A DNA stretch of 64,000 nt from an uncultured Planctomycetaceae bacterium (GTDB lineage Bacteria > Planctomycetota > Planctomycetia > Planctomycetales > Planctomycetaceae): the NCBI GenBank assembly GCA_963813715.1, contig CAWFAK010000016.1:320001-384000 (forward strand), read 5' to 3'. Position 1 is the stretch's first letter. Every line of letters begins with the position of its first letter. Of this stretch, positions 23,724 to 58,410 are shown one piece after another. Under the pieces are notes generated by a model. It was given only the letters and a program-made list of their open reading frames with translations. It was not told the origin of the DNA and made no database searches. The translations under genes and the position numbers were made by a program.

Positions 23724-24471
23724 GTGTCCGCGATTTCACCCAGCCTACAACCGAATTGGCGCGATTCGCCGCAGTTGGACGTGCGGCTGCTGGGGACGGT
23801 CGACTTTGAGTCGGCCCAGTTTCTGCTCGAACGCAGCGTTTACGAAATCAGCGGGCGCAGCGATCGCTTCGGCAGCCTGTTTCTGTGCGAGCACCCGCCC
23901 CTGATCACGGTGGGCCGCGCGGGCAGCCGGGCCCACGTCCTCTTGGAACAAAAAGAGCTGTCCGCGCGGGGCTTGCAGGTCCGCTGGCTCAATCGGGGCG
24001 GCGGTTGCCTGGTTCACGCTCCGGGACAGCTGGCCGTCTATCCGGTCGTGCCGCTCCAGCGGCTCGGCTTGGGACTTGGCGACTATCGGACCGCGCTCGT
24101 GGGCAGCGTCCTCGATCTGTGTGGAGAGCTGGGGATCGCGGCCGCGCCGCTCGAGGGGAATCCCAGCGTCGTGGCGGGCCGCGGCGGCGCAGTTCGCCTT
24201 CGTCGGGGCGGCCGTCAAACGCTGGGTCGCCTACCAGGGACTGTTCGTCAACGTGCATCCGTTGCTGCACATGCAACGTCTCGTTTCCCTCGGTGGCGAC
24301 CTGCGACCGACGTCGCTGCAGGCTTTGCGAGGCCGGGCGATTTCCATGTCGGCCGTTCGCGAGAGCCTGATCCGCAACTTGGCCCACCGCCTGGGATATG
24401 CGGAATACCAGATTTTCACCGGACACCCGCTGCTCGTTCGCACGCGGAGGGTGACCAATGTCTACGCTTGA
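23724..24471 (+). CDS. lipB: LipB-like octanoyltransferase homolog with degenerate catalytic motifs; frameshift near 24190
   Basis: LCEHPPLITVGR, RGGG..HAPGQLAVYP, G..V..WVAYQG..VNV. Overlaps lipA. Confidence 0.75.
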
Positions 24472-25349
24472 AATCCTGCACGACGTGCCGCCGGCTCCCA
24501 GGCGCCGTCTGCCGCCCTGGCTGAAGCGGCCGCTCCCCGCGCCCGGCATGTACTTCACGAGCAACGTCATCGAGGATTTGCGGCTCGAGACCGTCTGCGA
24601 AAGCGCGAAGTGTCCGAACCGCACCGAGTGCTGGTCGCAGCGCACGGCCACGTTCATGATCCTGGGGAACGTCTGCACGCGTCCCTGCGGCTTTTGCTCG
24701 GTCCCCAAGGGCAAGACCGAAGTCGTGCAGATCGACGAGCCGAGCCGCGTGGCCGAGGCCGTCGTCCGGCTCGGTCTCAAGCACGTGGTGATCACGTCCG
24801 TCACGCGGGACGACCTGGCCGACGGCGGGGCCGACCACTTTTATCGCTGCGTGCTGGCCGTGCGGGAGCGCTGCGAAGCCGCGGTCGAAGTGCTGACTCC
24901 GGACTTTCTGGGCAACGTCGCCGCGATTGACCGCGTGATCGAGGCCCGGCCCGACGTGTTCAATCACAACACGGAGACGGTGCCCCGTCTCTATCACCGC
25001 GTCCGCCGCAACGCCGCCTACCAGCGGACGCTCGACCTGTTGGCTCGGGTGAAAGATCGAGCGCCCGAGATTCCTACCAAAAGCGGCCTGATGCTCGGCC
25101 TGGGGGAGACGATCGAAGAAATCCTGGCCGTTCTGCGCCGACCTCAAATCGGTCGGCTGCGGGATGATCACCATCGGCCAGTACCTGCAGCCAACGCCGC
25201 AGCATTTGCCCGTCGAACGTTACGTTCCGCCCGAGGAGTTCGACGCGATCGGCGACCAGGTGCGCAAGCTCGGTTTCAAGCTGGTCGCCAGCGGCCCCTT
25301 CGTCCGCTCGAGCTACCACGCCGGCGAAATGGCGACGGCGCTCGCTTGA
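24458..25349 (+). CDS. lipA: Lipoyl synthase; frameshift near 25135
   Basis: [49 protein letters not shown]. Confidence 0.95.
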
Positions 25350-25453
25350 TTGCGGCACGCGATTCACCGGATCGCGGCCAACGCTCGATCACTGCCGGGC
25401 CCCCGGCGAAATCTCGCTGCGGTACTCCCAGACTCCCCACCGGAGATGACCCG

Positions 25454-26984
25454 ATGAGACCCGGCCGACACACCCGTGCGCCCCTCCGCCTGAGTTTTTC
25501 GTTTCTCTTCTTCGTCCTCTTTCTTTTTGCGCCAGTGTGCGTGACCCGCGCCGCCGATTTCTCGGTCGACGAACTGGATGCCTTTATCAAGCAAGGTCTG
25601 AAGGAGTATGGCGTCCCCGGTTGCGCAGTGGCGCTCATCAAGGACGACAAAGTTGTACTCGTGCGCGGGTACGGCGTGCGGCGTTCCGGCCGGGATGAAC
25701 TCGTGGACGAAAACACGCTGTTCATGATCGCGTCCAACACCAAGCCGTTCACCGCGGCGGTTCTCGCCACACTGGTGGACGAGGGGAAGTTAGGCTGGGA
25801 CGACCATGTGATCGATCGCTTGCCCGAGTTCGTGCTGCCCGATCCTTACCCGACGCGCGAGGCCACGATTCGCGATCTCCTCGCGCACCGCACGGGACTG
25901 CCGCCCTTCGCGGGAGACAATCTCGAGCGGCTTGGCTTCGATCGGCCGGAAATCCTGCGGCGAATTCGTTACCTCAAGTCGACGCATAGTTTTCGGGAGA
26001 AAGCCGGCTACTCGAACCCGGGTTACTTGGCGGCGGGCCTCGTCGCGGCACGTGTGGGGAACGCGAGTTGGGAAGATCTAGTGAAAACGCGGCTCTTCCA
26101 GCCGCTGGGGATGACTCACTCGGGCGTTTCGGTCAAAGACCGGGATCAATCGAACAACGTGGCCGAGGCCCATTTTGCCAAGCCGGATGGCGAACTTTAT
26201 GTCGTCCCCTGGAACAATCACGATCCGATGGGGCCAGCGGGCAGCATCACCTCGACCTCGGCCGACATGGCTCAATGGGTCCGCATGCAGCTCGGCGACG
26301 GACGTCTCGACGGCAAGCAGGTGATTTCGGCGAAGTCGATTCGCGAAATGCACACACCGGCGATGGTGGAGACACCAACCTTTGCCGAGCTGGCGCCGAT
26401 CGATCAGCACTCCGGTTTCAGCTACGGCCTGGGCTGGGGCATTTTTTACTACCAGGGCAGCCAGATCGTGGAAAAGGGGGGCGCCAGGCGGGCATGCGAT
26501 CGGTCGTCACCTTGGTGCCCGGGAAGAAGGCCGGCATCGTGGTGCTGGCGAATATGAATTTGACCGTGCTCCCCGAAGCGATCCGCGCAAGTTCCTGGAA
26601 ATGGTCGTGGCACCCGCCGGTCGCGACTTGCAGGGCGAGATTCGGCAGGCTCAAGCCGCGATCAAGAAGTCATTCTCCACGTCTCCACCCGCTAAGGCGA
26701 AGGGCGGGCCGGCCAGCCTGCCCCTCGCCCGCTATGCCGGCGTCTACTCGAATGATCTGTGCGGTCCGATGACCATCCAACTGGTGAAAGACGGCCTCCG
26801 CTGGGAAGCGGGTCCCGAACACTTCGGCGGCCCGCTCGAGCACGTCGGTTACGACACGTTCTCCCTCCGCTACCCGTCCGGCCACCTCGCGCTGCCGGAT
26901 GACGTGACGTTCGTGATCGACGCCGGCGGCCGTCCCCACACGTTAATCACCGAAAGCTACGGGACGCTTCAGCGCGCACCCTGA
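25454..26984 (+). CDS. Serine hydrolase (beta-lactamase class C-like) with DUF3471-like C-terminus; frameshifts near 26485 and 26590
   Basis: Signal peptide, ASNTK (SxxK), [28 protein letters not shown]. Confidence 0.88.
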
Positions 26985-32957: not shown

Positions 32958-35900
32958 CTATCGTCCCGCGGCCTGCGCAACAGGCGCGTTGAACTTGCTC
33001 GTCTCCAGGAAGGCGAACAGGTCGGCGACTTCGGCTAGCGTTAACTGATCGAGCAGACCGGCCGGCATCACCGAGATCTTCGAGGGGTTTTGCTCCTCGA
33101 TCCGGTTCTTGGGGATTTCGAGCTTGGTGGCGTCCGACATGAGGAGCACCAGCTTGTCGCTCTTCGCGGCGCCGGTGACGGGCATGCCGATGTAGACCTG
33201 CCCCTCGTGCGTGACGACCTGCACCATGCGGTACTGGTCGGAGATCACCTGCGACGGATAGACGATCGACTCGACGATCTCTTTGCGCTGGAAGCGCCGC
33301 CGGACCGAGCTGAGATCGGGTCCGAGAGATTCGCCCTCGTTCTGGAAGCGGTGACAACGGACGCAGCGGGCCTTGGTGAAGACGGCACGTCCTCGCGTCG
33401 CCGCACCGCGCGAGTCGTGATCGACCAGGTTGAGGATCTGATCGAACGAGTACTTCGGCTTGGCGGCTTCGTTCTTGGGCAGCTCCGGAGCCGGCGCGGT
33501 GGGGAATTTGTCGCGATACCACTTCTGGTAGAATGCGATCGACTTATCGAGATCGCGGCCGGCCTTCGAGTCGGCCTTGGTCCAATCGTGGAGCACGCTG
33601 ATCGCCCCGCGGCCGCCGTTGGCTCCCAGTTTGAGCGCCGTCTGAATCAGCGTGCGATACGCGTCGGCATTCTCCGGACGCTGATCGATTTCGCCCAGCG
33701 CTTCCAGGCAGAGCTGCATCGTCGTCGAATCGGCGAACTGCAGCGTCCGCACCAACAGGGGCAGATCGTCGGGCATCGGCTTGCCGGCCACCGCGCGGGC
33801 GATCATCTCGCGACGATCGGGGTAGTCGTCGTACAAGCGGCGGAGCATGGCCCGGCCGCCGGGCGACTGGCTCTTGCCGAGCGACTGGATGGCGGCCGCG
33901 ACCAGCTCTTCGCCGCCGCGGCCGTTCTTCGTCGACGTGTCCGACAAGCAGATCGCCCAGGATCTTCTGATAGTCGGCGATTTCCTCGGGTTTGCAGATC
34001 CGCACGAGCAGTGCGGCCGCGGCCGGAAATTGCGAGCCATGCTCGACGAAATATTTGCGGTCGGCCGGTGTGAAACGTTCGGTCGTGGCCCCGACGATGT
34101 TGGAGACGTAACCCGTCAGGCTGTTGCCGCCTTCCCAATCGCGCGTCCCTTCGTACCAGGCGAGCAGCCGCCGCTTGAGGTCGAACGTCCAACCCGAGTT
34201 GAGATAGCGCAACGTGAGCGCGTAGTGCAGCTGCACGCCGTGATTGGGCGACGTTTCCACCAGCCGCATGATCGGCTGGGCGGCCGGCGCCAGGTTGAGC
34301 ACCGCCAGGATCCGCGCCGTCTCGGCGTCGAATTCGGTCGAGCCGGTCGGGAATGCCGGCCAGCAGCGTGTGACCGATCTGGTCGGAGCCCGGATTGCGT
34401 GCCCCTTGCAAAAGGGCCAATTGCGTCAGCCGGATCGCGGCCATTTTGATGTTCCGGCGTGACCTTGCCGTTCGGCTGCGTGAGGATCTTGGCCGCTTCG
34501 GTCAGGATCATCGGACCAGAGCCGCGTCGATCGCGGCGATAGCTCGCCAAGAGTGCCTCGGTGACGACATGTAGATTCGACGAGGCGAGCGCCGTTCGCT
34601 GCCAGCGATCGACGGGCACGCGCTCGAGCGCAATTCGCGCGGAAAACCGCAGCCAGCGATCGTCGCTGGCCAAGAGCTTCAGCAAGCTCGGCACAGCGCG
34701 GCTCGGTGCCGCTGTGGATGAAGGCTTCGCAGGCGCGGCGGGCCACCGTGGGATCCGTGTCCTCGACCAGCCGCACCAGCGCGGCACGCACCTCGAGGCC
34801 CTGGTGGAAGCCGAGCAGATGCGTGGCGAAGGCGCGAACGCCCGCGTCGCGGGAATTCGACGCTTCCAGCAAGAGACGCAAATCGGGCTTGGGGCCCAGC
34901 TGGTTGAGCAACGTGAGCGCCCGCAGGGCAGCCGCCGGGTTTTTTCCCCGCACGGCCGCGGCCAGGCTCGATTCCCATTGTGGGCCGGCAGCAGTTTTCA
35001 CGCGGGCCGCAATTTCGCGAGCCCACGCCGCCTCGATCTGCGGCAGCTTGAGCAACTCGGCCACGCTGTTGGCCTCGGCCGGCTTCGCGCTGCCGCCCGG
35101 ATAGCGGAGGCGATAGACGCCGCCTTCCGACGCGCGGCCGCCCGTCGTGAAGACGATCGAGCCGTCGCGATCGACCTCGATGTCAGTGATGTTCAGCGGA
35201 TTGCCAGTGACCAGCGTCTCCCACGTCCCCGTGTACGTTGCTCCCGCCTTTTGCAGATGGGCCACGAGAATCCGCCCCATCGACCAGTCGCCCATAATCA
35301 GGCTGCCGGCGTATTTCTTCGGAAACTGGTTGTGCTCGTAGAAAACAATGCCCGTCGGCGAACCGCGACCGACGTCGACCGTGCCCGGCAGCGAGTCGAA
35401 ATAATAAGCGGGCCACTTGGCGTCGCCGCTTCGCCAGCCGAACTCGGCCCCGGCAATGCAGTGGTTTACGCGGATGGGACGATACCAGTACGCGCCGACG
35501 TCCCATTCCATGTCGGCGTCGAACGTGAACATGTCGCCGGCCGAGTTGAACGCGAAGTCGTACTCATTGCGGAAACCGCTGGTCTCCATCGACCAGTGCT
35601 TGCCGTCCGGCGTGAACCGCCAGATCGTGCCGCCGGGGGCCTTGATCCCGACGGCGTGGCCGCCCGCGTCCTCGAATTTCGGTACGAGCAGGTAGTCTTC
35701 GTCGTAATCGCGGCAGGGTGACGTGGCTTCCGGCTGCTCAAGGATGTGTGCGTGGTTGCCCATGTTGTGATAGAGCCAGCCGTCGGGCCCAAAGATCACG
35801 TCGTGCGGCCCGTGATCGCCCATGCCCCCTTGACTGCGGACGACTAAACGGACGTCGTCGGCCTTGTCGTCGTGATTTCTGTCGGGCAGGCAATAGACGC

Positions 35901-36717
35901 CGACGCCCTTCGGCCCCTGACCGACCGCGTACAAGTCGTCGCCGACTGTGCACAGTCCCTGGCAGTTCTTGACGTCGGTGGTGTACTCGACGACGCGGTC
36001 GTAGATGCCGTCGTGGTTGTCGTCGATCAGGCAGAGGATCGGCCCGCGCTCGCGCGAGACGATCATCCGCCCGCGATTGCCCCAGGTCATCGCCACCACC
36101 GATCCGACCATTTGCGGCTCGGCGATCCGCGTCAGCTCAAAGCCTTTCGGCACGTCATAGCGATCGAGATACGTTTCCTTGAGGACGATCTCCTTCCAAG
36201 GCGATTTTTCGTGCGGGCCGATGACTTTGACCGGCTTCCAATCGTGCGTGTCGAATTTCGGCTGCAGCCAAGCGGTTCCTTGCGGCGCGGTCGTCGTCGC
36301 TACCCAGGCGGCCCCCGAATCGAACGGCAGCTTGTGGCCCCCTTGGCTCCGCACCTCGCCGTCGACAAACAGTCCCGCCTTGCTCCCGCGGTTCTCCGCC
36401 TCGACGCAGATCACATTCGGGCCGCGGTCGACGATGTCATTCAGGTTGAAGCGGTAGAGTCGATTGGCGTCGCCTTCGCCGATCTTGATGCCGTTGACCC
36501 AGAGCACGAAATGGCTGCCGCACATCACGCGGGCAGCCCCGGTCGACGGGTCGTCGGCGCGGACTTCGCGGCGAAACCAAACCTTGCCGGCGGGAGCGCG
36601 TTGTTCCGGATGCCCCGTGTCGTACCAGATCCACTGGGCGTCGAAGTGGTCGTCCGCAAAGAGCGACCCACCGGCGAGAACCGCCAGGATAGTGCCGCAG
36701 ACACGCAAAGCGCTCAT
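32958..36717 (-). CDS. PVC-type membrane-bound dehydrogenase/beta-propeller + HEAT repeats + cytochrome c protein; several frameshifts
   Basis: Signal peptide, AQWIW...WFRR domain, DHGPHD, GFRNEYD, DADMEWD, EFGWRSG, GRGSPTG, HEAT-like helices, CVRCH...GPDLS...SVMPAGL. Confidence 0.85.
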
Positions 36718-46481: not shown

Positions 46482-47790
46482 CTACTTCGGCTGCTTGTAG
46501 AGCGTGCCGCCCTTCATCACCAGGCGGACTTTCCGCAGTGCGGAGATGTCGCGGGTCGGATCGCCCTCGACGGCGATCAGGTCGGCGAGCAGTCCCGGTT
46601 TGACCGTACCCAAGCGATCGTCGAGGTGCAGCACGCGGGCGTCGATCGACGTGGCCGACTTGAGGGCTTGCACGGGCGTCATGCCGTAGTCGACCATCAG
46701 CTCCAGCTCGCGGGCGTTGTCGCCGTGGGCGAAAACGCCGACGTCGCTGCCGCTGGCGATGGTCACGCCCGCGTCGAGGGCGGCCTTGAAGCTGGCTCGC
46801 TTGGCCTTAATGCGAGCCGGCTCTGGCTGCGAACCTTTGCGCCAGCCGCGGTATTGCGCGATCGCGTCGCCGGCGGCCAACGTGGGGCAGAGGGCCACAT
46901 GGCTCTCGGCCATCATCTTGAAGAGTTCCGGAGTTCCTTCGTCGCCGTGTTCGATCGTTTCTACGCCAGCCAGCGTCGCCCGCCGCGCCCCTTCGGCGGT
47001 TGTCGCGTGAGCCGAGACGGGACAGCCTGCTGAGCGGGCGGTGGCCACGATCAGCTTCAGCTCGTCGATGGAAAAGGTCGGCTGCGCCTGGTTGCCCGGC
47101 CCCCAACGATAGTCGGCATACACCTTCACCCAGTCGGCCCCGGCCCCGATCTGGCTCCGCACGACACGCACGAGATTCGACGCGTCGGCCTCTTCGGCTC
47201 CCTGAGGCACGGGCAGGTGGCTATCGGTGCGCCGTGGACCGTAACTACCCGTCGCCACGATGGCCCGCGTCACCACCAGCATCCGCGGACCGGGAATGAT
47301 GCCCTTCTCGATCGATTGCTTAAGTCCCACGTCCGCATCAGCCGCCCCCTCCGTCCCCAGGTCGCGCACGGTGGTGAAGCCGGCTAACAGCGTGGCCCGC
47401 GCGTGTTGCGTCGCGCGGCAAACACGTTCGGCCAGCGACTCCTTCAGCACCTGGTCATCCCACGACGTTTCGTTGTAGGGATGCAGAAACATGTGCGAAT
47501 GGGCCTCGATCAGTCCCGGCAAGAGCGTCATCCCCGGCAGCTCGATCGTCCGCGCCCCCGCCGGGACTTTGACTTCCTGCGCCGGTCCCGCTTGATCGAT
47601 TCGCTCGCCTTCCACGACGACGATCCAGCCTTCGTGCGTGGTCTCGCTCTCGCCGTCAAAGACGCGCAGCGGGTTTCAACACCAGCGGTGTTTTCGGATT
47701 GGCCGCAGAGCCATCGCCGCCTGCCAGTTGAGCGGCCGACACCGGCCACGCGGCCAATAAGCTGACTGCGGCCAGAATGAGTGAGGGCAT
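46482..47790 (-). CDS. Secreted metal-dependent amidohydrolase (Xaa-Pro dipeptidase-like subgroup); frameshift near 47665
   Basis: [48 protein letters not shown]. Confidence 0.9.
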
Positions 47791-47847
47791 GATCGTTCGC
47801 CTGCGGTGACGCGGGGAGGAAAGCAAATGTGTCATCAATAGCCGAGA

Positions 47848-48462
47848 TTATCGCCGTCGCCGCCGCGTTGCGAGGAATTGTTCGTCGAAAGAGCGGCGAG
47901 CCGTCGGACGGTGTCGAGCGGACCAGCGTTTGGTGGACGGCGAACAGCGCGACGACCAGAAACGGCCAACTGAACCAGGGCCAGAAGCTGACCCAGCGCG
48001 GCAACCGGTCGCCCGCCGTGACGTCGAACGACGTCCGCGCGGTCCCTGCCGGTCCTTCGACGTCAATCGAGACCGTCCACTCGCCCGCCCGTCGGCAGTT
48101 GGAACGTGGCCGAGTGAAACAGTTTGTTGGTCGTGGCCCCACTGTGCGCTGACATAAAGTCGGGCCTCGTCGGGTTCGTCGCGCGGCGCGAGCGACAGAC
48201 GGACATTGGCGTCGGGCAGGGCGTCGCCCGTCGTCGCATCCTGCGACCAGCACGTTGATCTCGACTGGGCCGGAACGGAACGGATTGGGCGAGGTGAGGG
48301 CCGTGATGCGATAGGGTCCCTGCGTCTGTGACAGCCGCACGGTGCCGCCGTCGGCGAAGGTCGCGAGCGTCTGCACCCAGCGAGGATCACACCAATCGAG
48401 AGCGCGAGGGCTGCCCATCGACACGGAACCCGCCAGCCGCACTTCGCCCGAAATTGGCTCAT
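47848..48462 (-). CDS. Exported Ig-like (YtkA/FixH-like) protein with C-terminal TM; frameshifted, 3' end uncertain
   Basis: Signal, ADGGTVRL, ITALTSPNPFRSGPVEINVLVQD, ATNKLFH, GEWTVSIDVEG, C-terminal WPWFSWPFLVVALF. Confidence 0.55.
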   Translation of the reverse strand: MSQFRAKCGWRVPCRWAALALSIGVILAGCRRSRPSPTAAPCGCHRRRDPIASRPSPRPIRSVPAQSRSTCWSQDATTGDALPDANVRLSLAPRDEPDEARLYVSAQWGHDQQTVSLGHVPTADGRASGRSRLTSKDRQGPRGRRSTSRRATGCRAGSASGPGSVGRFWSSRCSPSTKRWSARHRPTARRSFDEQFLATRRRRR

Positions 48463-48464
48463 GC

Positions 48465-50799
48465 TTAGCCGCCTCCCGGCAACGTGCCGCGCATTTGCAT
48501 CGGCTGGAACACGATCCAGACCGCGGCCGCAAACAACAAGAGGATCAACACGCCCCACGGGGCAAATCCCGCGAGCGCCTCGCGACGGTCGCGAGGCGTC
48601 CCGCTGTGCGATGCGATAACCGGTGTAAAGCGACAGCAAGAATCCGGCGTCAGCGAACACGAGCTCCAACCTCACGAGCCAGTCGCCCACCGGCCGACAG
48701 CAGGCGCATTGGTACCGCGGCTCGCCGCCGAAGGTGTAGCCGAGATCCTGCAGTGCCCGCTGCGTGGCGGGCAGCGCCGTCTCCCAACTCGTCAAAAAGT
48801 GAAAGCTGTAGTGCGAGAGCCAAACGCCAAAACCGATCGGCACGAGCGCGTACGCAAACCGGGTGGCCACGTCGAGCACGCTTCCGCGAAAACTGTCCCC
48901 AGCGGCGGCTGAACGCGGCGGCGAGTCCGACCGTCGTCGCCGGCAGCACGACCAGGCCCAGAAGCGTGAACAGCGTGGTCGTCACCCACGCCGGCGGATC
49001 GCCCAGCCAGGTCCGCAGTTGATCCAACTCGTCGACGACCGGTCCGACCATTCCCGCCGCGTTGGTGAGCGCCCCGAACGTGAGCACGACGACGAGCGCG
49101 GCCAGGTCCGTCCGCGTTCCGAAGCGACCTATCCCTGAGCGAAACGGATCGCGCCAGAGTTCCGCTCCCGGCAGGCCGGCAATCAGGCCGACGTTGTCGT
49201 GCGGGCAGGAGTGGACGCAGTCGAGACAAAACGTGCAGTCCATGTTGCTCGACTTGTGCGGCTGAAAGAGCCGCGTCGGGCAGCCGGGAACGACTGCGCT
49301 CCCGCGGATGCACTCGTGCGTGCGGCACGAGGCGCAGCGATCGGGCGCGCGGACTTTGACCTGCAGCGGCGACACCAGCGACTGCACGAAATTGAACTGG
49401 CCGATCGGACAGACGTACTTGCAGAACGTGCCGGCCCGGAAGAATCCGTCGACGGCAAACGCCGCCACGAAATAGCTGACGACAATCCAGGCCGTCCACC
49501 GCGGACTGTCCCAGAGCGCGAACGTCTCGTAGCCCCAGAGAAACAGGGCCACGAACACCAGCGACAGCCATTTCGTCCGCAGCCAGTGCGGCCAGACGCG
49601 GCCGAAGCCCAGCCAACGGCCGGCCAGTCGCCGCGGCAGCGTGAAGGGACAGGCCATGCAGGAGAAGTTGCCCGCGACGAGCAGGGCCAGGATCAGCAAG
49701 CCGCGCCAATGAATCCAGGGCAGCACCCCGGCCAGATTCAAGGGGGCCAGCTGCCGCCCGTGAAGACCATCGACAATCACTGCTCCCGCCAAAACAGCGA
49801 GCGGCAACTGCAACGCGACGCGCGCATGTCGCCATTTGAGAAACCGCCCAATCAGCGGAACATGCAGCAGATCAAAACCCCCGGCCGGCGCAGACTGGAG
49901 CACAGGGAGCTGGAATGTTGAAAGCGCGGGTGCGGTGCGAGCCCGTGGCGCTCGCGGCGGTCCGCGCGGTGACAACGCGCGCTCCCGAGGAGAACAGCAG
50001 CCGCACGCCGATCGCGAAGAGCGGCACCAGAAAAGCCACCGACCCCGGCACCCACATGATGACGCCGGCCGCCGCCTGGTCCGCGAGCGGCGACACCCCT
50101 GCCAGCGGCGGGATCTCCGTGTAATAAGGATAGAGGGGGCGACTCGCGAAGGTCGAGGAGCGCCGAGAGCAGCGTGTTCTGCACGTCGGCCAAATCAGGT
50201 AGGGCACAAGGAGCCAGAGCGACCAGCGTCGGCCGGCTCGGATAGGGTCGGATGACCGGGTACCAGAAGAGAAGCCCCGCGGCCAGAAAGCACGCGTGCT
50301 CGAGGTAGTGGCTGGCATCGGAACGGAGAGCCCAGACGTACGGCCCCGGTGCGTGCCAAATCCAGATCGCCGCAATGAAGACGGGCAGCGCCACGAACGG
50401 ATGCGTCAACCCGCCGAAAAATCGCCGCACCACGCGGGCCCGCAGCACGGGTCCGATCCAATGCGTGCGAATCGTCGCCGGCACGCCGCGAAGTAGCGGA
50501 AAGAACGGTGCCCCCAGCCAGATCAACGCGGGTGCGACCATCAACAAGAGCAGGTGCTGCACCATGTGCAGCGACAACAGGAGCGAGGCAAACGGCTCGA
50601 TCGGTGAGCCGAGCGCGAGAAAGATCGCCGCCAGCCCGCCGACAAACGCCAAGAGGCGTGCGCCAGTCCAGCGGGCGGGCGCCCGACGACGCAACTCGAC
50701 CCAGCCGCGTAAATAAACAGCCGCGCTCAAGAGGAGCGTTACGATCAGCGCCGGATTGGACGGCCACGATCGCAAGAACGCGTCGAACGCGGGATTCAT
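48465..50799 (-). CDS. CtaG-like cytochrome c oxidase assembly domain fused to a membrane 4Fe-4S (NosR/NapH/CcoG-like) domain; frameshifted
   Basis: SPIE, HMVQHLLL, WHAP, HYLEH, DQAAAGVIMWVPG, then CMACP, CKYVCP, CASCxxxxC, CTFCLDCVHSCP, HYSFHF, CACC. Confidence 0.78.
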
Positions 50800-50829
50800 G
50801 GCAACGTGCGATTCAAGGCAATATTGAAT

Positions 50830-52327
50830 TCAAGGCTGTGGATCAGCGTGTGGCTGCGCGGCCGGTATGGCCGGCGGCTGGCCCGCCGGTCGCAGGCTCG
50901 CCAAAAACGCGGCCAGCGCCGTCATCTGGGGAGCATCGATCTGCTTGCCGTAAGCCGGCATCTCGCCGCCTCCCGGCGCGCCCTTGGCGCCCGGCGTTCC
51001 GTTACTGACCTGGTCGATGAGCTGGTCTCGCGTGAGTCGCACGCCCACCGTCGTCAGGTCGGGGCCGCGTTGTCCGCCGATGCCGTCGATCGCGTGGCAG
51101 TTGCGACAATTCTTGTTCTGAAAGACGACCGCGCCCTGCAATTCCAGGGGCGAGCTGTGCTCGACGAGGCGGACGGGAATCGGGTCGCCGCTCCATGCGG
51201 TCATCGTCGGGCGACCAAGGGGCCGTTTGCCCTTCATACGTCAATATGCCCAGCACCGTATAAATGACAATCACCGAAAGCACGGCCACCGGCCGCCGGC
51301 TCGGCGCCCGCTCGCCCCGGTTGCTGACGAAGGGAACCAGGAACAAGGCGACGATCAACACCACGGGAAAGACGAGCATGACGAACGTCTCGATCGACGG
51401 CGGACTGAGCGCGAGCAGTGCGAACAGCCACAGGAAGGGCCATTCGGGACGCGGATTGGCTCCGGGCAGCGTCGGGTCGGGCGGGCCGGTCGGCCCCTTG
51501 GGACCCAGGATGGCCGCGATCGCCACCACCACGATCACCGCGACGGCCGAGGCGAACAGGTCCTTGAGCAAAGCATCGCCCAGGAACGGCACGCCCGACT
51601 TCGTCACCGATTCGTGATATTCCGCGTCGTACGTCCGCGGGTCGACGAGCACGCCGGGCCGCGGCACATCGCTGATGCCGCAGCTCAACACCAGCCACAA
51701 ATGAACCCCGAGCGCCGCCAGCAGCGTGCCGGGAATGACAAAGACGTGCAGTGCGAAGAAGCGGCTGAGCGAATCGGCACCGATCACCGGGCCGCCGAGC
51801 AACACCTCCACTATCCACGGCCCGAGAACGGGAACGCGGCCGGCCATCGACGCGCCGACCCCCAGTCCCCAATACGCATCGGGGTCCCACCGCAAAATCT
51901 GCCCAGTGAAGAACATGCCCAACGTGCACAACAGCAGGCAGACGCCCACGACCCAGGTCATCTCGCGCGGATATTTGTAGGCCCCCTGCAGAAAGACCTG
52001 CGTCATGTGGGCCAGCACCATCACGACCATGCCCGAGCCGGCGTAATAATGCAGCGACCGCAGGAACCAGCCCAGGGGCTCAACCTCGTTGAGATAGAGC
52101 AGGCTCGCGTAGGCTTTGTCGGCCGAGGGGACGTAAACGAGCGCCAGGCCAATGCCCGTGACAATCTGCACCGCCAACAGCGTCATCGACGCGCTGCCGA
52201 AGATGTACCACCAGCCCATCGGACCGTCGACCGCACGGGGGATCGGATGGCGGAGCACGGGCAACAGCGTGCTGCTGATTCCCAGCCGCCGATCGAACCA
52301 ATCCCCAACCTGGCGCACCCAGCGCAT
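50830..52327 (-). CDS. qcrB: Cytochrome b (Rieske/cytb complex) with fused C-terminal c-type cytochrome; frameshift near 51205
   Basis: RSLHYYAGS...LAHM, FFALH...GVHL, PEWP, then CRNCH...GPDLT...MPAY. Confidence 0.88.
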
Positions 52328-52351
52328 CGCGATCTCTTTCAGGTGATTTCT

Positions 52352-52959
52352 TTAGGCGATCTTGGAGGAGGCGGCCCGGGCCGAGCAGTCCCCCACCTCG
52401 GTCGATTTCGTCAGCGTGTTTTGCAGTGTCGGGTAGTGCGGAGCTTGAATCTCCAGGCGATCGCTTTCCACCCGCCACACACAGGAATAAAGGCCGCGCG
52501 GCGGAGGGCCCGAAGCGCGGCTGCCGTCGGAGTAATAAGCGCCGCCGTGACACGGGCACATGAACAGGGCCGACTCGGGAAACCAGGTGACCGGGCAGCC
52601 CAAATGCGCGCAGTTCACATCGAGCACGAGAAACTGATCTTTGCCGGCCGAGTCCTTGCCTTCGTAACGGACGAAGACGGTGGCCCGCGCGACCATGCCG
52701 TCCCAAGGCTGACGCAACGGATTATCAAACGTGACGCGGCGTGTCTCGTTGAGCGGAAATTCGCCCACCGCCCCCAGGCCGACCCAATCGACGGGCGTCT
52801 GGCGGGGCCGCAATACGTAGGCAATCAGCGGTGCGCCGGCGAGCACTCCCGCCGCGACGGAGACCGCCCCCGTGAGGACACGAAAGAACCAACGCCGTGG
52901 CGGATCGGGCGCCCGCTCGGCGCGGGGGACGAGCCTGTCTGGGCTTCGGTCGCTGCCAT
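52352..52959 (-). CDS. qcrA: Rieske 2Fe-2S subunit with Tat anchor; frameshift near 52920
   Basis: RRWFF plus TM, CAHLGC, CPCHGG, GPPPRGL. Confidence 0.9.
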
Positions 52960-53790
52960 CACGGAGTCCTGTCGCTGCGAGTTGTTTCCACGGATTGCGA
53001 ACCCAAGCCGGCCGATGCGACAGCCGCCGGCTGCTTCTCCAGCGATCGCAGGTAGGCCACGAGGTCGTTAATTTCGTCGGAGGACAGCGGGCGGAAGTCG
53101 TCGTCCCGGCCATCGGTCTGGGCGTAGTCGGGCATCTTGAGATCGGATCGGCCCGTAATGATCAGGCGGCGGAGCACCTGGTCGCTCAAGAGCGCCAAAA
53201 AGGCCGGGTCGCCGATCGCGCCGGCGGAGTCGCCTTTTCCTCTGTCGCCGTGGCAGCCAGAGCAGGCTCGCTCGTAGGCTTGCGCGCCCCGCTGGACGGC
53301 GGCTGTCGAGTGGTCGATTTTTTCCTTCGGCAGCGCGTAGGCGGGAACTGCGTGATCATCCTTTGGACTCGGCTTCCAGTGCGTCTTAAGTTCCGTCGTC
53401 AGCACCTGCATTTGCCTCGCCGTCAGCGTGCCCCCTTTGTCCTGCGAGAAGGCGGGCATCAAGCGTGCCAGGACGGCCGTCGCGAATCACGTCCCGCACG
53501 ACCGCATCGGGGACGATTTTGAGAAATAGCGGATCATTGAGCGGCGGAGCCGGACCGAGCCGTCCGTCCGGACCGTGACAGCCGGCACAATTCGTCGCAT
53601 AAAGTGCGTCGAAACCCAGCACTTCGTCGGCGGGCACGGTACGAATCTGGGCATTGCGCTGTCCGGGGAAGTCGCAACCGACGAGGACGAGCGCCAAGCA
53701 GGCCAGCCCCGCGACCGGCGCACCCCGGCGGGCACGGCCCGGATTGGGTCGCGTTGAAGTCTGCGTCATTGGCACGGGGTGAGTCTTCAT
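52959..53790 (-). CDS. Diheme cytochrome c lipoprotein; frameshift near 53465
   Basis: Lipobox LVGC, CAGCH...MPAF, CSGCH...MPDY. Confidence 0.85.
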
Positions 53791-55064
53791 GTCGGCCCCG
53801 GGGCTGCTCCTGCCGGCGGCACGAGGATCTGTTCCGAACGGACGATCACAATGGCCGCCACAATGCCGAACACAAATTGCGACACCACAAACCAGGGCCA
53901 GTTCACCCGTACCTGCAACAGCGGGTTGACCACGCCCATCAGGCTGTAGCTGGCCGCGGTCCAGAGAATGGGCATCAGCACGCCGCCCCAAACAAACGGG
54001 CCGGGAATCGGCCGCAGTCGCGGCAGCAGAATTCCATACAAGAGCCCCAGCCCGAGCGACATCACGATGTGGATGACAATTGCCGTCGTCAGCCAGTCGC
54101 CGTTGAACTGCATCAACTGCTCGGTCGACAAGTGGTCCAAGCCGCGGCGGACCATTCCCGTCAGCAAATTCGCGGGATACCAGAGGCCGTAACCGCTTGC
54201 CAGGCTCCAGAGCACGGCGGGGATCGGCATCAACAGCCCGCCCACCAGCCCGGCGCACACGCCGACGACCGGTGCCGGCAACCGATGTTGCAGCTGAATA
54301 AAGACGAACGCCGCCACAACGCCGAAAACAAATTGCGACGCAATGAACCAGGGCCAGTTGACCCCATTGTTGAGCGCCGGATTTACTACCGCCATAAAGC
54401 TGAAGGTCACGGCCGTCCAGAACACGGGCATCAGTGCTCCGCCCCAGGCGAGCGGTTTGCGAATCTCCGGCAACGTCGGCAGGAGCACGCCGTACAAGAG
54501 TCCCAGCGTGGCCGACATCGTCACGTGCACGAGGGCACCGACCACGAACAGCGACAGATGGAATTGCCCCAGCTCCTCGCGCCCGAGGCCGCCGACGCCC
54601 GGCATGGCAATTCCGGCCAGCAGATTGAGCGGATACCAGAGGCCGTGCCCGCTCAAGAGAGCATAGACGAGGGCGGGAATCGGCATGATGAGCCCGCCCA
54701 GCAGGCCCCCTTTCACGCCGGCTGAAATCGGATGGACTTTTTCGGGCAGCCGGATGCGATAGCCGGGCATCCCCAGTTCCAGCCGCTCGACGGCTCCCAT
54801 TTGGGCGGCGATCGCTGGGCCTGCAGCGGTGATTGCCTCGTGCATGTGACCGCGACCGGGCAACAGCGACGCCACCCACGCGACGATCCCGTAGATGAGA
54901 ATCACCGCGCCGACCAGGCCGAGCACCGGCCCCAGCGCAAAGCCGCTGAGCAACAACGTCGTCCCCAAGCCGACGATCAGCGGTGCGATGGTGGGCCGCG
55001 GCATCTCGACGGAGGTCTCCCGCGAGATGGCTTCGCTTCCGGTTGTTTGCGGTTCGCCGGTCAC
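53787..55064 (-). CDS. Membrane protein: N-terminal 2-TM (oxidase subunit IV-like) plus two tandem 152-aa 4-TM repeats
   Basis: MPRPTIAP...2 TM, then a duplicated G..GGL.MPIPA...GLWYP.NLL...H..MS...GLLYG.LLP...MP..WTA...VVNP.L...VNWPWF..SQFVFG unit. Confidence 0.75.
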   Translation of the reverse strand: MTGEPQTTGSEAISRETSVEMPRPTIAPLIVGLGTTLLLSGFALGPVLGLVGAVILIYGIVAWVASLLPGRGHMHEAITAAGPAIAAQMGAVERLELGMPGYRIRLPEKVHPISAGVKGGLLGGLIMPIPALVYALLSGHGLWYPLNLLAGIAMPGVGGLGREELGQFHLSLFVVGALVHVTMSATLGLLYGVLLPTLPEIRKPLAWGGALMPVFWTAVTFSFMAVVNPALNNGVNWPWFIASQFVFGVVAAFVFIQLQHRLPAPVVGVCAGLVGGLLMPIPAVLWSLASGYGLWYPANLLTGMVRRGLDHLSTEQLMQFNGDWLTTAIVIHIVMSLGLGLLYGILLPRLRPIPGPFVWGGVLMPILWTAASYSLMGVVNPLLQVRVNWPWFVVSQFVFGIVAAIVIVRSEQILVPPAGAAPGPT

Positions 55065-55074
55065 GGACTGAGCC

Positions 55075-55710
55075 CTAGCGGCCAAACAAATAAACGATGC
55101 TGAACACGAACACCCACACCACGTCCACAAAATGCCAATACCACGAGACCAGCTCGACGCCGATCTGGTTGGCGTGCGTCACCCGCCGCCCGAGCGCCAG
55201 ACCCAGCACGATCAGCATCGTGATCACGCCGATGGTAACGTGCAGCCCGTGAAAACCGACGAGCGTATAGTACGTGGTGCCGAACAGATTCCGGCCGATC
55301 GTCAGCCCGTGGACTTCGATCAAGTCGTGCCATTCGTAGATCGTGCCTGCCAGAAAGGCGACGCCCAGCGCGATGGTGAGCGCCCACCAGCAACAAAAGA
55401 GCCGTTGCCGTTGCCGCTCAAGCGCCATTCCCGCCAGGTGGATCGCCACGCTGCTGGAGAGCAGGCAGATCGTCGTGCCGATGACGAGCGGCAGCGAGAG
55501 GGCCTCGCGCGGCGTGGGCCCGACGCGGTCGCGATGCAGGTAGCTGATGTAGACCACGATCAGTGTCGTGAAGAAGGCGACTTCCGAGAGCAGAAAGGCG
55601 AGCATGCCCCACTGTGATGCCGTCAAAGGCTTCGCGCCCGCGGCGGCGTGCGCGGAATGTCCGCCGGGGATGGCGGTCGCACTGCTGAGGGCCGGTTGGG
55701 ACGCGCTCAT
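55075..55710 (-). CDS. ctaE: Cytochrome c oxidase subunit III
   Basis: GMLAFLLSE, LLSSS, YEW, GFHGLHV, WYWHFVDVVW. Confidence 0.93.
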   Translation of the reverse strand: MSASQPALSSATAIPGGHSAHAAAGAKPLTASQWGMLAFLLSEVAFFTTLIVVYISYLHRDRVGPTPREALSLPLVIGTTICLLSSSVAIHLAGMALERQRQRLFCCWWALTIALGVAFLAGTIYEWHDLIEVHGLTIGRNLFGTTYYTLVGFHGLHVTIGVITMLIVLGLALGRRVTHANQIGVELVSWYWHFVDVVWVFVFSIVYLFGR

Positions 55711-57376
55711 TCGTATTTCCAATCCGGATCGTCGGGATGTTTGAGATCCCAGAGGGGACGGCGGCTGCGGACCGTGGGGATCGACGCGAAGTTGTACGAC
55801 GGCGGCGGCGACGACGTGCCCCACTCGAGCGTCCAAGCGTCCCAGGGGTCGTCACCGGCGGGCCGCCCCTTGAAATAAGACCAAACGACATTCCAGACGA
55901 AGATCGCAAAGCTCGGCGCCTGGATCAGCGCGCCGATCGTCGTCAGTTGATTCAAGAACTCCCAGCCTCGGCTCGGCTCATACGTGTAGATCCGCCGCGG
56001 CATGCCCAGGAAGCCGGAAATATGCATCGGCCCGAACGTGGCGAAGAACCCGATATACAACAGCCAGAACTGCCAGCGGGCCAGCCGCTCGGAGAGCATC
56101 CGGCCAGTGACTTTGGGATACCAGTAGTGGATGCCGGCGAATGTGCCAAACAGCGTGCCGCCGATCAGCACCCAGTGAAAGTGACCGACGACGAAATAGC
56201 TGTCGGAGAGCTGAAAGTCGAACGGGGCCGCGGCCAGCATGATGCCCGTCAGCCCGCCGATGAGGAACATCGACAGAAATCCGCAGGCAAATAGCATGGG
56301 CGACGCCATCCGAATGCGCCCGCCATACATCGTCGCCAGCCAGTTGAAAAACTTGATGCCCGTGGGAATCGACACGAGCAAGCTGGCGACGGCGAACCAA
56401 ACATCCTGCATGCGGCTCATGCCGACGCAGAACATGTGGTGGGCCCACACCCCCAGGCTGATGAATGCGATCGCCATGGTCGCCGCGGCCATGAACTCGT
56501 AGCCGAAGAGCACCTTCCGCGAAAACACGGGGATCACCTCGGTGATCATGCCGAACACCGGCAGGATCAGGATGTAGACCTCCGGGTGGCCGAAGAACCA
56601 GAACAGGTGCTGCCAGAGCAGGGCCGAGCCGCCGTTCTGCACATCGAAGAAGTGGGCCCCGAAATCTCGATCTAACATCACCATCACGAGCGCCGCCGTC
56701 AGCGGCGGAATGGCGATCAAAATTTGCACGGAGGTCCACAGCATCGTCCACGCAAAGAAGGGGATCTTGGTTATCGTCATGCCAGGGGCGCGCATGCCGA
56801 TGATCGTGGCGACAAAATTCACCGCGGCGGTGATCGTGCCGATGCCGCTGACGATCAGTCCCAGACACCAGAACTCCGTCCCCAGTCCTCGGGCGAAGGC
56901 CGGCTCCGTGAGGGGAGCGTAGGCGAACCAGCCGATCGCCGGCGCCCCGCCGACCGCGAAGCTGAAATACGCGAGCAACCCGCCGAACAGCGTCACCCAG
57001 AATCCGAGCGCATTGAGCCGCGGAAAGGCCATGTCCCGTGCGCCGATCATCAGCGGGACCAGGTAATTGCCGATGCCGATCAGGATGGGCATGCCCATGA
57101 AGAAGACCATGGTCGTGCCGTGCATCGTGAAGAGCTGATTGAACGTGTCGGGCGCAAAAAATTGTTGTGCGCGTAGAAGAGCTGCCAGCGGATCAGCATC
57201 GCTTCGCAGCCGCCCACCACCAGGTAGAAGATGGCCATGCCGATATACATCAGGCCGATCTTCTTGTGGTCGACGGTCGTCACCCAATCGTGGAGGGTGG
57301 CCGGCCAGGAGCGCACGGGCTCCGCCTTCGCCGCGGCGATCTCAGAGTCGACTTTGGGTTCTACGGCCAGGCTCAT
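55707..57376 (-). CDS. ctaD: Heme-copper oxidase subunit I, type A1; frameshift near 57160
   Basis: TVDHKKIG, TMHG, GARDMAFPRLN, WFFGHPEVY, WAHHM, PTGIK, HFH, GMPRR. Confidence 0.96.
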
Positions 57377-57389
57377 GAGTGCAGTTTCG

Positions 57390-58410
57390 TCAGTGCAGCG
57401 TAGTCAGATAGCGAACGATGTCTTTCCGCCGCGCTTCGCTAAAGCTGAAGGCGGGCATCAGGCAGCCGTACTTCATCTGCTGGGGGTCGGCCACCCAGCG
57501 TTCGAGATTCTTCGCATCATTCGGGAAACAAGCCGGACGCCAGCGTTTCGCGACTCATCAAGTGCGTCAGGTCGGGGGCGTACGTACCGGCCGCCGACGT
57601 CCCGCGAACGCGATGGCAATTGACGCACGCCTCGCTCAAAAAGGCCTTTTTGCCGGCCAGCGCGTCCGGATCGTCGTGTGCCGGTGCGAGCTGGCTCTTC
57701 AGCCACAGCTCAAATTCTTCCGGCGTGTCGACGACCACCCGCAACAGCATGCCGGCGTGCTGCGTGCCGCAATACTCGGCACACTGCCCCAGGAACAGGC
57801 CATGCTCGCGCGTCTCGAACCACATGTGATTCGACTGGCCGGGGATTAAATCGGTTTTGCCCGCCAGCCGCGGCACCCAAAAACTGTGACACACGTCGGC
57901 CGATTGCAGGTTGAGGAATACGGGCCGATGTGCGGAGTCGGTCGTCGCCGGAATGTGCAACTCGTTCGCCGTGATGAATCCGAGCGGACGGCCGTTGTAA
58001 GTGTCGTAGCGATACTCCCACCACCACTGCCGGCCGACGACGGTGACAAACAGCGCGTGGTCGCCCGGCTTGGGCTGCGACGCAGTGACGTCGACCTCCC
58101 AGAGCGTCCGCGTCATCACCAGCACCAAAATGCAGACGACCAGCGTGGGCGCGACTGTCCAGGCGACTTCGATCGGCTGTCCGCCGTAGACCTGGGGCGG
58201 CTCGCTCTCGGTGCCGGCCGACGTCTTGCGGAACCGCACCAGGTTGTAGATCAGGATTCCCTCGACGAGGAGGAAGATCAGCCCGGTGATCGCAAACAGC
58301 AGCACCGACAGCGTGCGGATCGACTGCGACGGAGGCGCGGCCGGGTCGAAAATCGACAGGTTTTCCGCCTGCGATTCGGCCAGGGCCAACAGCACAGTTG
58401 TCGCCATCAT
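57390..58410 (-). CDS. ctaC: Cytochrome c oxidase subunit II with CuA and fused cytochrome c (caa3-type); frameshifts near the C-terminus
   Basis: IEVAWT, QWWW, DVCHSFWVP, CAEYCGTQHAGM, CVNCH...PDLTH. Confidence 0.93.

Follow-up and report, generated by a model that had tools for sequence, protein, structure and literature searches.

Supercomplexes of complexes III and IV with quinol:O2 activity are established in Actinobacteria and Bacillus subtilis, where bc-aa3 of Corynebacterium glutamicum and bc-caa3 of B. subtilis are described as such (PMC9145763), as well as in Sulfolobales (PMC4122944, PMC3509893). Long cytochromes b with a C-terminal class I cytochrome c are also known from Planctomycetes, Acidobacteria and Verrucomicrobia, often as one of several copies and thought to have spread horizontally (PMC4122944). 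The nine-gene respiratory block described here lies in a window of 64,000 nucleotides (assembly GCA_963813715.1, contig CAWFAK010000016.1, positions 320,001 to 384,000) from an uncultured soil planctomycete, whose nearest named relatives are Planctomycetaceae, in line with the host assumed in the first-pass annotation of this DNA. Judged from their conserved cofactor ligands, its genes specify a Rieske/cytochrome b complex together with a caa3 oxidase of type A1. We consider it probable, at roughly 0.6, that their products form a membrane-bound menaquinol:O2 supercomplex, with an electron path from the quinol-oxidizing Qo site through the Rieske cluster, the heme c of cytochrome b, a diheme cytochrome c and the heme c of subunit II to CuA, heme a and a3-CuB. 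No account of the block, of its membrane protein X, of its CtaG fusion or of its PEWP motif was found in the openly accessible literature, and the operon does not appear in the available portions of PMC4013037, PMC8239418, PMC9162462 and PMC5600118; likewise, no biochemical characterization was found in the literature searched, as had been supposed.

The nine consecutive genes run on the minus strand, as do all their features given below, from 58410 down to 47835, in the order ctaC with a fused cytochrome c, ctaD, ctaE, the gene of membrane protein X, the diheme cytochrome c, the Rieske protein, cytochrome b with a fused cytochrome c, the CtaG fusion and a ninth gene that ends 13 bases past the boundary drawn earlier. 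This order and common orientation, read from the letters alone in the first-pass annotation, were borne out by a Pfam search, a tblastn map and direct reading of the DNA. Two intact loci, L029 and L003, serve as references. L029, a metagenome contig 96.4% identical to the window over 18.3 kb, has all nine frames open, and its eight junctions measure 13, -4, 13, -4, -4, 24, 30 and -1 bases, with ATGA/GTGA overlaps among them; mostly overlapping or abutting genes had been noted earlier. In the window, frameshifts interrupt seven of the nine genes, and L029 differs from it by small indels at these places; some of the same indels recur in short-read contigs of four runs, for instance that at 57149 in all four (12 of 33 indel rows displayed). 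The genes flanking the operon carry the same kind of indels when the window is compared with L029. Because L029 is intact and the short-read contigs show the same corrections where displayed, the frameshifts of the window are sequence or assembly errors. The GC content is 64.6% for the operon and 63.2% for the genome. A scan for promoters and terminators placed none at the operon ends; in all it gave 2 sites resembling promoters, where 1.4 were expected, and 18 resembling terminators, where 10.8 were expected (standard deviation 3.5). The contigs of one metatranscriptome span 28 of 30 bins, which is not read as evidence of expression.

The first three genes encode the oxidase. ctaC (57390..58410, one artefactual frameshift near 57526) specifies subunit II, in which Pfam matches to COX2_TM, COX2 and Cytochrom_C mark a CuA site and a C-terminal cytochrome c (CVNCH); its intact L029 copy scores above the cut-off of TIGR02866. 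The CuA ligands His, Cys, Cys, His and Met are invariant in all ten aligned subunit II sequences. In two reduced genomes described below the CuA motif reads CAQYC (L129:5667-6656, L130:6057-7046), with Gln for the usual Glu, and L135 also has Gln. ctaD (55707..57376, artefactual frameshift at 57149) encodes subunit I with the motif GHPEVY. The six His ligands, the cross-link Tyr, the K-channel Lys and the D-channel Asn are found in 91 of 91 locus rows, and the D-channel Asp and Glu286 in 90 of them. Since subunit I passes TIGR02891 and keeps the metal ligands and both proton-channel signatures, it is assigned to type A1; every trait examined for this type (ligands, His-Tyr cross-link, XGHPEVY, channels, and CuA with heme c on subunit II) was found. 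ctaE (55075..55710) encodes a short subunit III that lacks the two N-terminal helices and matches Pfam COX3 at positions 76-257 of 258.

Membrane protein X (53787..55064) can be described from its alignment as a CtaF/COX3-like N-terminal hairpin followed by two tandem DUF1440(YagU)-like repeats. Pfam matches are weak at E<=0.1, with DUF1440 reported for 25 and Cyt_c_ox_IV for 9 of 47 members. A profile of the hairpin matches residues 5-66 of mitochondrial COX3, its first two helices (E 5e-4), and in the structure model of X (predicted local distance difference test score 83.9) the hairpin matches 6adq_H, chain H of the Mycobacterium smegmatis supercomplex, with a middling score (Z 6.6, root-mean-square deviation 3.3, 53 aligned). 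The Pfam, profile and structure signals for equivalence with CtaF are weak but concordant; additionally, a stand-alone counterpart of the hairpin in L026 is annotated 'cytochrome c oxidase subunit 4'. As subunit III here lacks those two helices, the hairpin probably completes it. For the repeats no clear solved fold was found in structure searches: the model gave no Foldseek match at E<=0.001, its Atlas structure hits were all below 0.9, and the best VIA match, to the S-components of energy-coupling factor transporters (Z 7.7), lies in the range of common helical bundles. A complex prediction of cytochrome b (residues 1-373) with the X repeats (100-415) scored 0.00, which is evidence neither way. 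X was also considered as a heme protein, which was not adopted, one His per repeat being invariant in 47 close homologues and not in the wider family. Many relatives of X have one repeat only; one- and two-repeat counts are taken from the genome-locus survey, the repeat labels on the cytochrome b tree being unreliable. All 15 two-repeat genome loci with a readable Qo motif have PEWP.

The remaining redox subunits begin with a diheme class I cytochrome c (52959..53790, artefactual frameshift near 53462-53470), recognized by family matches and the L029 frame and predicted from a lipobox-like motif (LVG-C) to be a lipoprotein; this motif is found, by a loose pattern and with duplicates included, in 72 of 75 locus rows having both hemes. 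The Rieske protein (52352..52962, Pfam Rieske, artefactual indel at 52918) has a twin-arginine motif, CAHLGC and CPCHGGAY, the last with a G-Y signature shared by 81 of 86 locus rows and 38 of 40 genome loci. According to the text of PMC4122944, G-Y Rieske proteins have a 'Mid-' potential of about 200 mV and are paired with menaquinol in PDWY clades. Cytochrome b (50830..52327, artefactual frameshift at 51206) consists, by profile matches and alignment, of b6-like and subunit IV parts with a fused C-terminal cytochrome c (CRNCH), a class I cytochrome c on a long cytochrome b as in the cytb-c fusions of PMC4122944; one CxxCH is present in this extension in 120 of 120 homologues. The four heme b His are kept in all 322 aligned rows, and together with the CxHxGC and CxCH boxes and the Rieske-then-cytochrome b order they identify a Rieske/cytochrome b complex. 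It is not of the b6f or Bacillus b6c type, for which a split cytochrome b and a heme ci CxGG cysteine were sought: cytochrome b is a single chain reading WYIFGS or WYVFGS, without the cysteine. The four CxxCH motifs listed in the first-pass annotation are present in the DNA as CVNCH (57627-57613), CAGCH (53589-53575), CSGCH (53264-53250) and CRNCH (51108-51094), and their tethering to the membrane also stands as a prediction, two hemes being fused to membrane proteins and the diheme protein having the lipobox-like motif.

The Qo motif, read by alignment column, is PEWP in the window and in 120 of 120 nearest homologues; the tyrosine of the usual motif is proline here, and the acidic residue is kept. 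The 71 nine-gene-type loci comprise PEWP (48), PDWP (11), PDWY (7), PDAP (2) and one each of PEWY, PDFL and PDFY; 11 loci of a shorter seven-gene core, described below, have PDWY (10) or PDFY (1). Another 120 homologues, of a Verrucomicrobiota protein and with gene context unchecked, have PDFF (70), PDFY (34), PDFW (12) or four singletons. The PEWY or PDWY that goes with the cytb-c fusions of PMC4122944 is absent from the window and present in 8 of the 71 nine-gene-type loci. According to Kao and Hunte, 84% of representatives have Tyr at Qo position four and 96% have Trp at position three, and none of their six main patterns ends in proline (PMC4122944); 'PEWP' does not occur in the main text or supplementary file 2 of that paper, the two parts searched, and a whole-word literature search for PEWP with cytochrome found nothing. 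In a FastTree tree of cytochrome b, built from 82 rows thinned to about 50 and restricted to loci of this analysis, all PEWP and most PDWP sequences fall in one branch (support 0.998), and two PDWP rows fall among PDWY rows. Apparent PDQA, PDLA and PDNA variants were rejected as pattern mismatches, four loci being PEWP by alignment column, and L018 is PDWY by the same reading. A generally eroded Qo site was rejected too, since the column reading leaves a Tyr-to-Pro lineage plus separate variants. At the helix cd1 position that corresponds to yeast Gly143, all 311 nine-gene-type or nearest-homologue rows have Gly and all 11 core rows have Ser, which by alignment is a second Qo-pocket difference between the two architectures.

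The operon closes with two genes that we infer to be a copper-loading pair. The CtaG fusion (48465..50799, several artefactual indels) joins Caa3_CtaG (PF09678 above cut-off) to a membrane polyferredoxin domain resembling NapH, NosR and CcoG, in which twelve Cys and the motifs HxxxH and MxM are invariant across 57 rows. Of 54 members, 53 match NapH (TIGR02163) in the polyferredoxin domain, 14 match NosR and 8 match CcoG (TIGR02745); the L029 copy scores below cut-off, and the fusion has no sequence relative in the PDB. The role of Caa3_CtaG in CuB insertion is still described as tentative (PMC9145763), and the cupric reductase CcoG has two 4Fe-4S clusters and ends in an immunoglobulin (Ig)-like domain (PMC7558416). 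The ninth gene (47835..48462, several artefactual indels) is predicted by Pfam and a conservation scan to encode an exported Ig-like protein with a C-terminal membrane anchor. The earlier label 'YtkA-like' holds as a weak match only (at E<=0.05, 27 of 48 members match YtkA and 8 match FixH), the near-identical L029 protein falling below the Pfam cut-off; no His, Met or Cys is conserved at 85% in 50 rows, unlike in CtaK (YtkA) of B. subtilis with its conserved His and Met copper ligands (PMC9145763), and no convincing sequence relative was found in the PDB. The pair resembles ccoGHIS (fixGHIS) of cbb3 oxidases in that a membrane protein with two predicted 4Fe-4S clusters and CxxCP/CxxxCP motifs is followed by an Ig-like protein downstream of oxidase genes; it differs in serving an A1 oxidase, in being fused to Caa3_CtaG, in scoring far below the CcoG cut-off and in having no CcoI or CcoS. 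The description of the operon as self-contained, with its own assembly module, does not hold: only CtaG, the NapH/CcoG-like domain and the Ig-like protein are encoded within it. Contig C3 carries ctaA and ctaB (for the synthases of heme A and heme O), SCO and CtaM, and C5 and C17 carry the cytochrome c maturation genes. A Pfam search of the host genome gave no CtaA, and tblastn gave a partial match on C3.

Compared with the obligate bcc-aa3 supercomplex of Actinobacteria (CIII2CIV2; C. glutamicum, M. smegmatis), the block has similarly linked cta and qcr genes, a short CtaE with a CtaF-like hairpin, a diheme c wire and a Rieske protein of low-potential type, and a CtaG-domain fusion is known there too as an assembly factor (CtiP; PMC9145763). 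Unlike in Actinobacteria, its subunit II and cytochrome b carry their own heme c, the diheme protein is a predicted lipoprotein, the CtaF part is fused to DUF1440-like repeats and CtaG to a polyferredoxin, and in the host genome it is an accessory route. The actinobacterial models for QcrA, QcrB, QcrC, CtaC, CtaD and CtaE (NF050116, 117, 119, 120, 121 and 122) are all below cut-off, which, with the extra fused hemes and the fused CtaF and CtaG, upholds the claim of a different architecture. QcrABC-caa3 of B. subtilis shares the heme c on subunit II, Caa3_CtaG and a b6-like cytochrome b; its QcrC presumably also has heme c fused behind the subunit IV part, as here (compare the annotation of plasmid hit H6). 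The block differs from it in four ways: cytochrome b and subunit IV-c form a single chain that lacks the heme ci cysteine, the qcr and cta genes lie in one operon, a diheme lipoprotein stands in place of CccA/CccB, and the last gene has no CtaK-type His/Met residues. The PEWP/PDWP Qo site also sets the block apart from the cytb-c fusions as described in PMC4122944, and linkage to an oxidase operon does not figure in the part of that account available. Read as a supercomplex, the block works like the known bc-(c)aa3 supercomplexes, outside the actinobacterial family, and what is new are its three unusual parts.

The conserved gene order on which the first-pass annotation had staked its proposal is found both in metagenomes and in genomes. 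In 80 metagenome loci, picked by similarity to X and many of them short, every adjacency follows the order of the window, bar one locus without a cox1 match; the diheme gene comes after X in 67 of them, and in the remaining 13 the sequence stops no more than about 210 bases from X. At E<=1e-20 and with the host genome counted, X is present in 44 of 401 Planctomycetia genomes and 33 of 203 genera, carriers including the closed, 99%-complete genomes G693 and G802. Forty genome loci were obtained from 39 of the 43 other Planctomycetia carriers, some stopping at contig ends: X, diheme and Rieske genes stand together in all 40, with cytochrome b next in 37, the CtaG fusion in 31 and the last gene in 25. 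L175 has the X-diheme-Rieske genes without a neighbouring cytochrome b match, L189 and L196 have them without oxidase and cytochrome b matches, L202 has no cox2/cox1 match within the stretch fetched, and G1019 has two X loci. In a phylum-wide sample searched with a narrower X profile, 2 of 400 other genomes matched strongly; in Verrucomicrobiota, the phylum of the Chthoniobacterales record L007, strong matches were found in 3 of 251, the centre genome included. The nine-gene cassette is not planctomycete-specific and spans two phyla. The CtaG fusion was not detected adjoining the operon in L007, nor within L183 and L200.

A shorter block of seven genes, in the order ctaC-c, ctaD, ctaE, ctaG, a small ctaF-like gene, Rieske and cytb-c, is found in other planctomycetes and verrucomicrobia. 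It moves as a unit, being carried on plasmids of Fulvitalea axinellae (Bacteroidota) and of two Deinococcus strains, all named and cultured; the plasmid search gave no X match. In this core ctaF and ctaG are separate, unfused genes, there is no separate cytochrome c gene, and the X repeats and the diheme protein are both absent, whereas both are present in the long form. By gene content the nine-gene block is an expanded seven-gene core, the additions being the fusion of the CtaF-like hairpin to DUF1440-like repeats, the diheme c lipoprotein, and the CtaG-polyferredoxin fusion with the Ig-like protein after it.

Two single-contig genomes of 0.92 Mb, G493 and G517, have lost only one gene of the block from view and retain the other eight in unchanged order, together with a separate ctaA-ctaB-SCO-DUF420 cluster. 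Each has one COX1 and one cytochrome b, and no bd oxidase match was found in either. As the eight genes are retained there as the only detected oxidase and cytochrome b, the block very likely works, and this retention argues that it is the working terminal chain of these reduced genomes even with PDAP at Qo. Near the ctaA cluster, each also encodes one extra monoheme cytochrome c, whose hydrophobic N-terminal stretch may be an anchor or a signal peptide.

In the host genome (G000) the block is accessory and not the sole route. It is one of three COX1 (heme-copper oxidase) loci, of which another lies beside alternative complex III and a third next to a different bc complex; the genome has three cytochrome b loci and one bd oxidase. 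There are 26 PF00034 matches, and a small monoheme c whose N-terminus resembles a signal peptide is encoded by a 157-codon frame, so that the situation reported for C. glutamicum, no other cytochrome c in the cell, is found neither here nor, given their extra monoheme c, in the reduced genomes. The region C3:7200-25600 (L022, L023) holds a second linked bc-oxidase cluster with a split cytochrome b, a long subunit IV with PEWF, a 1,532-residue frame with eight CxxCH, a diheme protein, cox2, cox1, ctaA, ctaB, cox3, SCO and CtaM. At C17:624000-644000 (L025) alternative complex III genes (NrfD match, pentaheme c) are followed by a caa3-type oxidase, and at C9:116000-118100 (L024:6100-8041) a third cytochrome b with PEWY is followed by a frame with two CxxCH.

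Beside the operon, an amidohydrolase gene (window 46482-47838, minus strand) overlaps the stop of the ninth gene, as it does in L029; L003 has another neighbour in its place, so the amidohydrolase is probably outside the cassette. Elsewhere in the window, a 699-residue frame (24458-26557, plus strand) with radical SAM and beta-lactamase-family domains may be a real fusion or indel-joined genes, and a large protein of planctomycete type (32958-36717, minus strand), which combines DUF7133, HEAT repeats and a cytochrome c domain, is split by frameshifts.

In the supercomplex as proposed, the Qo site would oxidize menaquinol, with a Q-cycle via hemes bL and bH, and electrons would pass from the Rieske cluster to the heme c fused to cytochrome b, on to the lipoprotein diheme c and the heme c of subunit II, and from there via CuA and heme a to a3-CuB, while the oxidase would pump protons through its D and K channels. 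The X hairpin would take the part of CtaF in Actinobacteria, completing subunit III, and the X repeats would act in the membrane as a spacer or scaffold. The absence of both repeats and diheme from the core, and the presence of both in the long form, suggests that the diheme protein may bridge the distance added by the repeats. CtaG would load CuB and the CcoG-like Fe-S domain would reduce Cu(II), with heme A, heme c and CuA maturation supplied by genes outside the operon. In this scheme we infer the physical association of complexes III and IV, the quinone type, the heme order and the roles of X and of the Fe-S domain.

Several observations weigh against this reading. Operon linkage is not proof of a physical III-IV supercomplex, and the extra monoheme cytochromes of the host and of both reduced genomes could shuttle electrons, so that the first-pass idea of a chain needing no soluble cytochrome c stands as a conjecture; three genome loci (L175, L189, L196) have no cytochrome b match and two of them no oxidase matches either. 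These points would suit a co-regulated but separate bc complex and caa3 oxidase, linked by a diffusing diheme lipoprotein or another periplasmic cytochrome c and at most loosely associated, a minority possibility that deserves to be taken seriously. The diheme protein is anchored by lipid only, a few loci are rearranged, and B. subtilis has small separate membrane cytochromes c (PMC9145763). Complex III and IV genes are, however, interleaved with X and the diheme gene in one order across two phyla, and the core block, without a separate cytochrome c gene, favours direct c-to-c contact. The cluster could also be decaying, given its seven broken frames in the window and the same cox1 break in L001, but this is highly improbable beside an intact L029, displayed short-read indels that restore the frames and flanking genes with the same kind of indels.

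Other points also weigh against the proposed supercomplex. The usual Tyr is missing from the Qo site, as is the Trp in the reduced genomes (PDAP); NapH fits the Fe-S domain better than CcoG does (53 and 8 of 54); and the ninth gene lacks the CtaK-type His/Met and was not detected in the reduced genomes. A non-standard input, with an altered Qo site that runs no normal Q-cycle and a NapH-like domain that is a structural electron-transfer or quinol-dehydrogenase subunit and not an assembly factor, would account for NapH as best family match and for the variable Qo positions 3-4 of the nine-gene form against PDWY in 10 of 11 core loci. It is unlikely: the acidic Qo residue, the four heme b His and the Rieske ligands are never lost, canonical PDWY occurs in seven nine-gene loci, the CtaG fusion partner points to copper handling, and the fusion goes undetected adjoining the operon in L007 and within L183 and L200. 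A bolder form of the supercomplex reading is offered tentatively, as possible if doubtful. It would see here a new obligate III-IV architecture of diderm bacteria of the Planctomycetes-Verrucomicrobia-Chlamydiae group, in which X joins the complexes, the lipoprotein diheme completes a four-heme wire, a Qo site ranging from P[DE]WP to PDAP oxidizes menaquinol without Tyr, and one CtaG-polyferredoxin both reduces copper and inserts CuB, the block being portable and sufficient as sole terminal chain of 0.9-Mb genomes.

For the family as a whole, the diheme-less seven-gene core and the nine-gene forms with one or two X repeats offer a series of builds for linking complexes III and IV. The PDWY, PDWP, PEWP and PDAP motifs are natural variants within one family through which the role of the Qo tyrosine may be approached, and the joining of Caa3_CtaG with an Fe-S domain suggests a link to copper reduction that can be put to the test.

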